DNA of 64,000 nucleotides from Desulfobacteraceae bacterium. GTDB taxonomy: Bacteria > Desulfobacterota > Desulfobacteria > Desulfobacterales > Desulfobacteraceae. The stretch is from assembly GCA_024226935.1 (NCBI GenBank), contig JAAELK010000222.1, forward strand, positions 27,237 through 91,236, written 5' to 3'. The position numbers were made by a program, and so were the translations under genes. The notes beneath the pieces were generated by a model, which did no database searches, had not been told where the DNA came from, and worked only from the letters and a program-made list of their open reading frames with translations. Position 1 is the stretch's first letter; each line of letters opens with the position of its first letter. Positions 23,993 to 25,723 of this stretch are shown piece after piece.

Positions 23993-25723
23993 CTATTGTT
24001 CCTGGATGCCGGGGACAAGACCTTTTTTCCCACCCTCCCACAACTGCCAGTAAAAATCGTCAAAAAAAGCAGCCTCCCGGTGTAATGCTTCAAGCGTTTC
24101 ATCCCCGTTTATTCCAAGGGTGTGAAGCCCGAACTCTGACACATCATAGGGGGTGGATTTCTGAAAATAATCCCGTGTAGTATAGGTTGCAGTGTAAACG
24201 ACCACATTGTCATCTTCACTGTCCTTTCCCTTTTCCACCAATTTAATATAAGCATCCGACTCCGCCACACAGCCATAATTTTCAGCATTTTTCAGGGTTT
24301 TGCTGGTATAACCTGTTTCGGGATCAACCACAGGCTTCTGATCACTGTCACTTCTAAGCCCCTGCCAGACAACTTGGGTAAAATAGTCACCGTTGTGGGG
24401 CCATTTTACCGTGCCCCTGGGGTAAGGTTTTCTTATTTTATCCTTGGTACTTACTTTGGTCCCTGAAACTCCATCTGGATCAGAAATAAAAGCTGAGATG
24501 GCGTTTATTCTTTCATTGCCGCTATCATCTCCTGTATCATTATTACAATCAAGATTTCCCTCCATTTCATAGACCCTGACCATCACCGTGGCCCAGGCCT
24601 TTATATAAATTTTATAATTATATGAGGCTTTTCCCATTTCGTCATTTTCCGTGGGAACCCTGATAAACCCCACGGGAACCTCCTGGCCGTCAAAGGTATC
24701 AACCGGTTTCCCCGTGTTATCCCCATCCTCATAGGTGGAAGGGTCCCTGATAATAATACCTTTGGGGCCAGGAGAGCCTAAAATTTCAACCTCTTCTTTT
24801 GTACTGATTCCCAATATCCCAAACCTGTCCTTTAGCTTCCAGGCAGTATATGAATCCTTGTGGTATTGTAAAAGAGCAGTATTTTCACCCTCGTAAAAAA
24901 GATCAATTTCAAGAGAGTTGTTTTCATCAGAAGAGGGAACCTTATAATGATAAATTTTCACCTGGACAGCATCCACAAGGGGGGTATAGGCAAGCCACTC
25001 CCAGGGGGAATAATCACTGCCACCTCCACATCCCCCCGTGTTCACAGCTTCTCCTGCGGCATTTGTGCTGACATCCTTTTGCCAGAGCATTATATAGGGA
25101 ATACCGTCCAGGGGGGGATCATCATCCCAGTCACTGGGGGTAAAATCGGATTTATTACAGGGTTCAATATCAAAAGCCCTGTCCGTGGAACCATGGTTGT
25201 TGAAAAAATTATCACTGATATCATCGCTTTCCGAATACCAATAGGAATAATTGTTGCCGCAGCCACTCCCCGTTGATTCGGAAAATTTTTCTATCCCCTT
25301 AAGCCCCCTTAGAAAAGACAATCCATAGTAGGTTGCCTGGCCAAAGCTTCCCTTCTTGGGAGAACGAACCCTGAAGGACAATCCCGGCATATAGCAGCCG
25401 GGATGATTCACTGGTTGGAGATCTGTATCGTCTTCATCTTCTGTGAACTTGATTTTTGCCTGGAGATCATAGCTTAACTTCTTGTCGGATTTTTCCCAAA
25501 TGTTTTTTAATAAATTATCTTCAAATTTATTCCACTTGACAACGGCAAGGCTTTCACTGTGCATCACGGGAGCTGTATCCCCCCCGGAGGTATAATTGGT
25601 GTAGGAATAGGTCTGCTTGGTACTGGTGATTTTAAGGGCTCCGTCATAAACCCCATGGCTGCCTATTTTTGAATCCATTTTACTGCTGTCATCCGAGGTA
25701 TCAAAGTTGCCCCCCCCCCTCAA
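23993..25723 (-). CDS. Large pilus-cluster protein of unknown function (candidate tip/adhesin subunit; possibly the C-terminal part of a fusion with the upstream ORF)
   Basis: 576 aa with no motif I recognise. The annotated start is a TTG inside a G10 tract; the next ATG is codon 16. It is the last gene of the pilus operon. Confidence 0.6.
   Translation of the reverse strand: MRGGGNFDTSDDSSKMDSKIGSHGVYDGALKITSTKQTYSYTNYTSGGDTAPVMHSESLAVVKWNKFEDNLLKNIWEKSDKKLSYDLQAKIKFTEDEDDTDLQPVNHPGCYMPGLSFRVRSPKKGSFGQATYYGLSFLRGLKGIEKFSESTGSGCGNNYSYWYSESDDISDNFFNNHGSTDRAFDIEPCNKSDFTPSDWDDDPPLDGIPYIMLWQKDVSTNAAGEAVNTGGCGGGSDYSPWEWLAYTPLVDAVQVKIYHYKVPSSDENNSLEIDLFYEGENTALLQYHKDSYTAWKLKDRFGILGISTKEEVEILGSPGPKGIIIRDPSTYEDGDNTGKPVDTFDGQEVPVGFIRVPTENDEMGKASYNYKIYIKAWATVMVRVYEMEGNLDCNNDTGDDSGNERINAISAFISDPDGVSGTKVSTKDKIRKPYPRGTVKWPHNGDYFTQVVWQGLRSDSDQKPVVDPETGYTSKTLKNAENYGCVAESDAYIKLVEKGKDSEDDNVVVYTATYTTRDYFQKSTPYDVSEFGLHTLGINGDETLEALHREAAFFDDFYWQLWEGGKKGLVPGIQEQ

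Follow-up and report, generated by a model that had tools for sequence, protein, structure and literature searches.

A probable one-base frameshift in a ten-guanine run divides a giant type IV pilus gene of a Desulfobacteraceae bacterium

The 64,000-nucleotide stretch of Desulfobacteraceae DNA considered here (the window; GenBank assembly GCA_024226935.1, contig JAAELK010000222.1) carries a type IV pilus operon in which genes for a PilQ-subfamily secretin, an MshE-type ATPase, a GspF/PilC platform protein, a pilin and two minor pilins are followed by a giant gene, in the same order as in two related loci (L001 and L002). In the window this last position is taken by two overlapping open reading frames (ORFs) on the minus strand: an upstream ORF of 613 codons (25701..27542), which begins with GTG and ends VEGGGQL-TGA, and a downstream ORF of 576 codons from TTG (23993..25723), which lies in the +1 register relative to the first and overlaps it by 23 nt. 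Direct reading of the window places a run of ten C residues on the plus strand at 25710-25719 (...atcaaagttg CCCCCCCCCC tcaacc...), that is, ten G residues (G10) on the coding minus strand, inside the overlap to which an earlier sequence-only reading had assigned it (25701-25723). The two ORFs are very probably a single gene that carries a one-base frameshift in this slippage-prone run.

Translation at other tract lengths makes the relationship explicit. Removal of one G yields a single uninterrupted ORF of 1,182 codons (...SKVEGGGNFDTSDD...) in which the tract occupies codons 608-611; the read-through that the sequence-only reading had predicted for a G9 allele is therefore real, at 1,182 codons rather than its estimate of ~1,190. 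Addition of one G (G11) appends a tail of 15 residues, ATLIPRMTAVKWIQK, before a stop, giving a product of 626 residues and agreeing with the ~15-residue tail that had been foreseen. The TTG proposed as the start of the 576-codon ORF is present, one nucleotide out of phase; the public record uses an ATG at 25676-25678 in its place. NCBI nr holds the resulting pair of products, a 613-aa protein (P0085) and a 561-aa protein starting at that ATG, and each is a singleton cluster in a collection of 15 billion proteins.

We regard the two ORFs as one gene because homologues span the junction in one frame, with no boundary at that point in any relative. A search of the G9-fused translation against 5.8 billion proteins found single homologous proteins of 1,078-1,199 aa that cover 99-100% of the query at 30-61% identity, along with more distant relatives of ~1,000-1,380 aa. 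The homologues are collinear with the fused protein across the junction, where the window's SKVEGGGNFDTSDD lies opposite KKIEGGIDFND in proteins P0001 and P0002, and the G9 form aligns there without a gap (EGGGNFD against EGGIDFND). Loci were also compared directly, 17 from species-representative genomes (Desulfobacterium, Desulfatiglandales and Syntrophales metagenome-assembled genomes) and 28 from metagenomes; in a tblastn comparison with 120 residues around the junction as probe, each of the 32 loci in which the site is present matched across it in a single frame, and ORF scans of the complete related loci found no gene break there.

The family does have a natural gene boundary, at a place corresponding to window residue ~305 and not 613. 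A profile search of 1.84 billion cluster representatives returned 776 relatives at E <= 1e-30, in two architectures: a full-length form, and a shorter one that starts at profile position ~300. Loci L015 and L011 encode the N-terminal module on its own (L015:5938-6894 and 6510-9326; L011:5935-6765 and 6575-9373). The 613-aa ORF consists of that module (module A, a prepilin domain with a CFI-box segment) plus the first ~300 residues, about a third, of the following module B, while the 576-aa ORF holds the rest of B; judged by these architectures, the 613-aa ORF is not a natural unit. The premise of two distal pilus genes must thus be given up. The orthologues, which had been proposed as arbiters between two separate genes without a homopolymer and one fused gene with a tract, return a mixed answer: they are fused, yet without the homopolymer. 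The other suggestion, of a split MshQ-like giant minor pilin, fares better in that a single gene is strongly supported; the likeness to MshQ is one of operon position and size, without similarity of sequence or fold.

From its sequence, the protein is best described as a composite of ~1,182 residues: a prepilin module, a CFI-box segment with a hydrophobic stretch, and a GspK/PilX-like pilin-type module with a large domain and a C-terminal motif (Table 1). The CFI-box-like segment is followed directly by a long hydrophobic stretch. In homologues this segment scores 66.8-79.7 bits against NF041770, above the cutoff of 40; the window protein falls outside NF041770, with its score below that cutoff and the segment at an internal position (aa 199-263 of 1,182). 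Only in loci such as L015, where module A stands as a gene of its own, does the domain occupy a true C-terminus; a literature search for "CFI-box" returned nothing. Module B opens with a second hydrophobic segment, ERGSILIGVIITMVIM, and the corresponding region of P0001 (aa 316-385) gives a weak GspK match (E 0.0016). Over the remaining ~860 residues of module B there are no relatives in Pfam, NCBIfam or the PDB: searches of Pfam and NCBIfam with the protein found no match beyond the prepilin motif and the CFI box, and a PDB sequence-profile search matched pilin N-termini and nothing else.

Conservation is concentrated in the part that lies beyond the tract. Identity to P0001 is 66% downstream as against 58% in the upstream ORF, and most family-invariant alignment columns fall in the downstream part (columns 627-1178). 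The terminal motif, YFDDF-x12-GFxxPIQQ-COOH, forms the terminus of nearly every one of the 26 homologues and is conserved to the last residue. An AlphaFold model of the orthologue P0001, with a mean predicted local distance difference test (pLDDT) score of 68.7, is beta-rich and confidently predicted over residues 350-650; within that region the junction (residues 609-613) falls at the end of a beta-strand with pLDDT 71-75 and with confident strands on both sides (71-91 over residues ~570-640), and the last residues form a strand (E1169-1171). A Foldseek search of the model against the PDB gave no match (best E 0.012), a weak test of fold at that mean pLDDT.

Table 1. Positions of features of the interrupted gene and of other split copies in the family (window coordinates unless a locus is named)
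Feature	Position	Strand	Remarks
Interrupted gene, 1,182 codons when the tract is G9	23993..27542	-	Composite minor-pilin/tip protein; last gene of type IV pilus operon
G10 homopolymer (C10 on plus strand)	25710..25719	-	G9 form would encode Gly-Gly-Gly (GAG GGG GGG GGC)
Premature TGA	25701..25703	-	In G10 frame, two codons past tract; terminates 613-aa product
Candidate restart codons, TTG 25721-25723 and ATG 25676-25678	25676..25723	-	No good Shine-Dalgarno before either; hydrophilic N-terminus without signal peptide (read from sequence)
Prepilin cleavage/methylation motif, module A (G-FTLIEV, aa 9-33)	27444..27518	-	PF07963 25.6 bits (cutoff 21.2); TIGR02532 22.9 bits (cutoff 16.3)
Diverged CFI-box-CTERM-like segment (aa 199-263, starting CFIKSK), end of module A	26754..26948	-	NF041770 26.4 bits, below cutoff 40
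Second pilin-like hydrophobic N-terminal segment (ERGSILIGVIITMVIMAALSGAMLSMF, aa 308-338), start of module B	26529..26621	-	G310, L313, T319 and V321 invariant
C-terminal ~570 codons missing from G10 product	23996..25700	-	Intact; 66% identical to P0001; most family-invariant residues
Extreme C-terminal motif FFDDFYW...GLVPGIQEQ-COOH	23996..24067	-	Family form YFDDF-x12-GFxxPIQQ
Split copy	L048:5880-5905		Extra G in TGGGGTT, about 10 codons from homologous site
Split copy	L050:~5755		Break near A5 run, about 30 codons upstream
Split copy	L049:~5745		Break in T4 run, opposite polarity
Split copy	L051:~5900-5925		Break about 45 codons downstream, without homopolymer

Several further observations on the protein stand apart from the frameshift. 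It joins units that elsewhere are separate, a prepilin ending in a CFI-box-CTERM (~280-320 aa) and a PilX/GspK-like large-domain protein (~700-950 aa); the fused polypeptide bears two pilin-type N-terminal segments and, internally, a "C-terminal" sorting-type domain. Among the best 150 family representatives, a rough count by eye put ~60% in the fused form and ~25% in a form with module B only. The same gene also contains a hexanucleotide tandem repeat, (ACCGAT)x6, at window 26163-26198 (minus strand), which encodes TDTDTNTDTDTD; it is a second slippage-prone repeat, in frame, and is absent from the orthologues.

How the window came to have so long a G run can be seen in part from its relatives, all of them distant (<=61% identity). 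Close orthologues have E-G-G at the site, spelt for example GAA GGG GGA (G5) or GAG GGA GGC, and more distant family members share a conserved Gly-Gly-Gly with [DEN]xF after it, a pattern (GGG[DEN]xF) that the G9 reading of the window matches. The run is thus this lineage's own way of spelling a conserved glycine motif, as GGG GGG GGC after GAG. GGG makes up 20.7% of glycine codons in the window, and two of the three Gly-Gly-Gly motifs in its 11,054 codons are spelt GGG GGG GGN; from this small sample there is no sign that such runs are avoided. The tract is the longest homopolymer of the window and its sole G/C run of more than 8 nt. About 0.02 G/C runs of at least 10 nt would be expected per 64 kb with independent bases; extrapolation of the window's own run-length decay (Markov orders 1-4) gives 0.09-0.25. 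It is therefore unusual without being wildly improbable, and what makes it noteworthy is that it coincides with a frame break.

The product made from the G10 sequence ends at residue 613, inside module B, and loses the most conserved part of the protein together with the C-terminal motif; such a truncated product is probably non-functional. The downstream piece, in which neither an export signal nor a convincing ribosome-binding site can be read, would be neither produced nor exported by itself. A promoter-like match at 25704-25677 is one of 24 where 12 are expected, with a -10 box that overlaps the ATG, and we give it no weight. If a switch exists, its states would be ON (G9, and also G6 or G12) and OFF (G10 and G11), and not fused and separate: the alternation between separate and fused pilus proteins imagined in the sequence-only reading does not agree with relatives that have no gene boundary here, nor with a downstream piece that lacks both signals.

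For the extra base we propose, as the likeliest reading, a simple course of events. The conserved Gly-Gly-Gly, spelt GGG GGG GGC after GAG, would have produced a run of nine G residues; strand slippage in a run of this hypermutable length would have added one, giving G10; a stop two codons on would then leave a 613-aa fragment minus the conserved C-terminal ~570 residues. A one-base reversion would restore G9, so that the locus would exist as a reversible ON (G9) or OFF (G10) allele of the tip protein, and by analogy with PilC/PilY1 the loss of the C-terminus would block pilus initiation. Three elements of this account are inferred: the tenth G is taken to be no miscall, to be open to reversion, and to do away with piliation through the truncation. 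We put the chances that the extra G is a genuine slippage mutation, and a potentially reversible OFF allele, at about even. Were the tract real, mixtures of G9 and G10 would be expected in any population because nine to ten G residues exceed the length by which phase-variable genes are called in Neisseria. Two features looked for in contingency loci are indeed present: the poly-G/C run is at least nine long (G10), and changes in its length switch the frame with the ON frame left intact (1,182 codons at G9; stops at 613 and 626 in G10 and G11).

Other observations weigh against a real, switching allele. G runs at the homologous site in relatives are 2-7 nt long (the longest is G7, in L007), and no orthologue has a G/C run of 8 nt or more anywhere in the gene. 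The window contains eight G/C runs of at least 7 nt where 6-10 are expected. The tract is thus neither kept in relatives nor part of an enrichment in the window, as would be looked for at a contingency locus, and it lies mid-gene; classical translational phase-variation tracts are usually near the 5' end. A DNA pattern of the exact flanks with a variable gap had no matches (0) in metagenome contigs that might have revealed a second allele. No other run inside a confirmed gene reaches 9 nt, which leaves the window without an internal control for the calling of such runs, and the intact downstream frame is predicted equally by an artefact. Since the orthologues lack the tract and G/C runs are not in excess in the window, there is no indication of selection for mutability. 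It is unlikely that we are looking at a selected contingency locus through which a free-living, Desulfobacterium-like sulfate reducer stochastically switches a type IV pilus linked to cyclic di-GMP (c-di-GMP) ON and OFF by truncating its composite tip protein (prepilin module, CFI box, pilin-like adhesin module) upstream of the conserved C-terminal assembly motif.

A more serious rival, with a substantial though minority claim, is that the true DNA has nine G residues and an intact 1,182-codon gene, the extra G having been miscalled in sequencing or assembly. The break falls exactly in the window's longest homopolymer, removal of one base restores a gapless alignment to the orthologues, and there is no sign of decay in the 576 codons downstream. 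The sequence comes from one draft contig (NCBI; 99,075 bp) without independent confirmation: exact-protein look-ups found no encoding contig, the collections searched yielded no second assembly or sister strain, and the 90%-identity clusters of the window proteins are all singletons. Long genes of this family are, moreover, often split in metagenome assemblies, as in L048, L049, L050 and L051, at differing positions. Against a miscall stands the state of the rest of the sequence. A scan of all homopolymers of at least 6 nt in the 64 kb, with arms of at least 100 codons, found no other homopolymer-linked frame break, which favours a real G10 while being still compatible with a single isolated error; an A8 at 22003 marks a natural overlap of the Lgt and PAP2 genes that is also seen in L001, and a T6 at 61531 lies antisense to a 1,459-aa ORF. 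Runs of eight G, A or T residues are consistently called, with their ORFs intact, and the error would need to be a +1 over-call. The 99-kb draft contig fits short-read assembly, a platform deduced from that size alone, and this too favours a real tenth G; consensus homopolymer miscalls, including those at 10-mers, are uncommon in short-read data. One of the eight-base runs, a G8 at 3802-3809, lies in frame inside the ORF 3333..4301 (minus strand), where it encodes Gly-Gly-Gly, and it also favours a real G10; two other G8/C8 runs, at 17280-17287 and 38106-38113, are intergenic and lie just past stop codons.

Programmed recoding, in which a genuine G10 would be bypassed by transcriptional slippage or +1 ribosomal frameshifting to yield the 613-aa and 1,182-aa proteins in fixed ratio, is very improbable. 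On a run of ten G residues, tRNA-Gly or the nascent RNA should be able to slip by one base and re-pair perfectly, and the +1 shift required agrees in polarity with that of the split copy L048. Conservation of the site is lacking, however: orthologues are in frame across short or interrupted G runs (32 of 32 loci). Neither a stimulatory RNA structure nor a slow codon adjoins the slip site, since RNA folding near the tract does not exceed that of shuffled sequence (z = +1.11) and the stop comes two codons past the run, rather than next to it as in +1 sites of the prfB type. Documented cases of productive transcriptional slippage mainly involve A/T runs. The other split copies differ from the window in break position and polarity. 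These fragments of ~613-637 aa (P0082, P0088, P0108 and P0086) were picked by length, and their clustering near the homologous region is probably selection bias because they were chosen in that way; a conserved programmed site drawn from the four split metagenome copies was considered and rejected, the breaks being scattered within about 45 codons and mixed in polarity. That the ORFs are really two genes, one for a 613-aa pilin-like protein and one for an independently translated 561-576-aa partner, is scarcely credible: both products are deposited individually in NCBI nr and the 23-nt overlap resembles translational coupling, but relatives have their boundary near residue 305 and none here, the junction lies inside the confident beta-rich region of the P0001 model and not in a disordered linker, and the downstream piece, as read from its sequence, has no signal peptide, pilin-type N-terminus or Shine-Dalgarno.

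The surroundings of the giant gene offer additional points of interest. The pilus extension ATPase (30406-32124, minus strand) has an MshE-type c-di-GMP-binding N-terminal domain (53 bits; cutoff 38), and a GGDEF diguanylate cyclase gene (37070-38092, plus strand) is divergent from the operon; because of this domain and this neighbour, the sequence suggests that the pilus is under c-di-GMP control. Convergent to the giant gene are a paralogue of Lgt (prolipoprotein diacylglyceryl transferase) and a PAP2-family gene (20854-22654, plus strand; L001:9459-10938), an arrangement that is conserved for Lgt in 12 loci and for PAP2 in 15. One idea is that the invariant cysteine of the CFI box (C199) could be a lipidation or processing site served by these Lgt- and PAP2-family enzymes. 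In L001 the 3' end of the giant gene overlaps that of PAP2; in the window ~1.3 kb of extra DNA separates them (22655-23992) and contains an ORF of 201 aa (22787..23392, minus strand), coiled-coil-like with a C-terminal HPD (J-domain-like) motif, which has no counterpart in any of the loci compared.

For annotation, the consequence of a single gene is that the deposited 613-aa and 561-aa proteins should be merged and flagged as one frameshifted gene. If the extra G is an artefact, one miscalled base has created two spurious database protein families, no more. The protein family itself is perhaps of more lasting interest than the tract, with its hundreds of cluster representatives, its internal sorting-type domain, and its conserved Lgt-paralogue and PAP2 neighbours.

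Set beside known systems, the locus shares something with each of several. As in the homopolymer indel artefacts of draft and metagenome assemblies, a one-base difference in the longest homopolymer splits a long and otherwise intact gene; unlike platform-wide artefacts of that kind, an error here would stand alone, as no such break occurs elsewhere in the window. With transcriptional slippage and +1 frameshifting, as in insertion sequence (IS) transposases and prfB, it shares overlapping 0 and +1 ORFs joined by a slippery homopolymer; it differs from those in having no site conservation, no stimulatory structure or adjacent slow codon, and a run of G rather than A/T.

Comparison with pilus tip proteins is closer. 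In PilY1/PilC, in MshQ and in the self-complementing CpaL, a C-terminal beta-strand is supplied to a minor pilin of the GspK/PilK/PilX family; MshQ and CpaL are modelled to use the same strand as PilY1/PilC, and loss of the C-terminal strand of PilC abolishes piliation (PMC13533445). The giant protein resembles this class by analogy of position, size and conserved C-terminus, which falls short of demonstrated membership: like the PilC/PilY1/MshQ-type proteins it is large (about 1,000-1,200 residues), encoded last in a type IV pilus operon, immediately behind the minor pilins, and conserved at its extreme C-terminus, and like CpaL its module B joins a pilin-type hydrophobic N-terminus to a large domain. 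It differs in matching none of PilY1, MshQ or CpaL by Pfam, NCBIfam, PDB sequence or Foldseek, and in the extra N-terminal prepilin module and internal CFI-box segment placed in front.

The nearest parallel to the tract itself is pilC of Neisseria, where the tract is near the 5' end of the gene; a literature search on phase variation in Desulfo- taxa found nothing relevant. Poly-G phase variation of Neisseria pilC1/pilC2 goes back to Jonsson et al. 1991, as cited in PMC13533445, and among Neisseria phase-variable genes at least nine G residues serve as the operational threshold, with pilC carrying genic G(9-20) tracts (PMC5953494). Here, as there, a G run of at least nine lies within the gene for a large type IV pilus tip protein (here putative) that follows the minor pilins, and one-base changes in the tract would decide whether the full protein is made. 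The Neisseria tract is conserved across strains of the pathogenic species, with length variation and ON/OFF phenotypes documented, whereas that of the window occupies codons 608-611 of 1,182, is absent from all orthologues and is known from one sequence; the two proteins share no detectable similarity of sequence or fold, and the host, to judge from the relatives, is a Desulfobacterium-like environmental anaerobe. If G10 is both real and variable, it would offer a rare case in which a homopolymer turns a pilus tip protein ON and OFF in such an organism; and if it were in addition a selected contingency locus, it would be a convergent counterpart, beyond host-associated bacteria, of the phase variation of Neisseria pilC.

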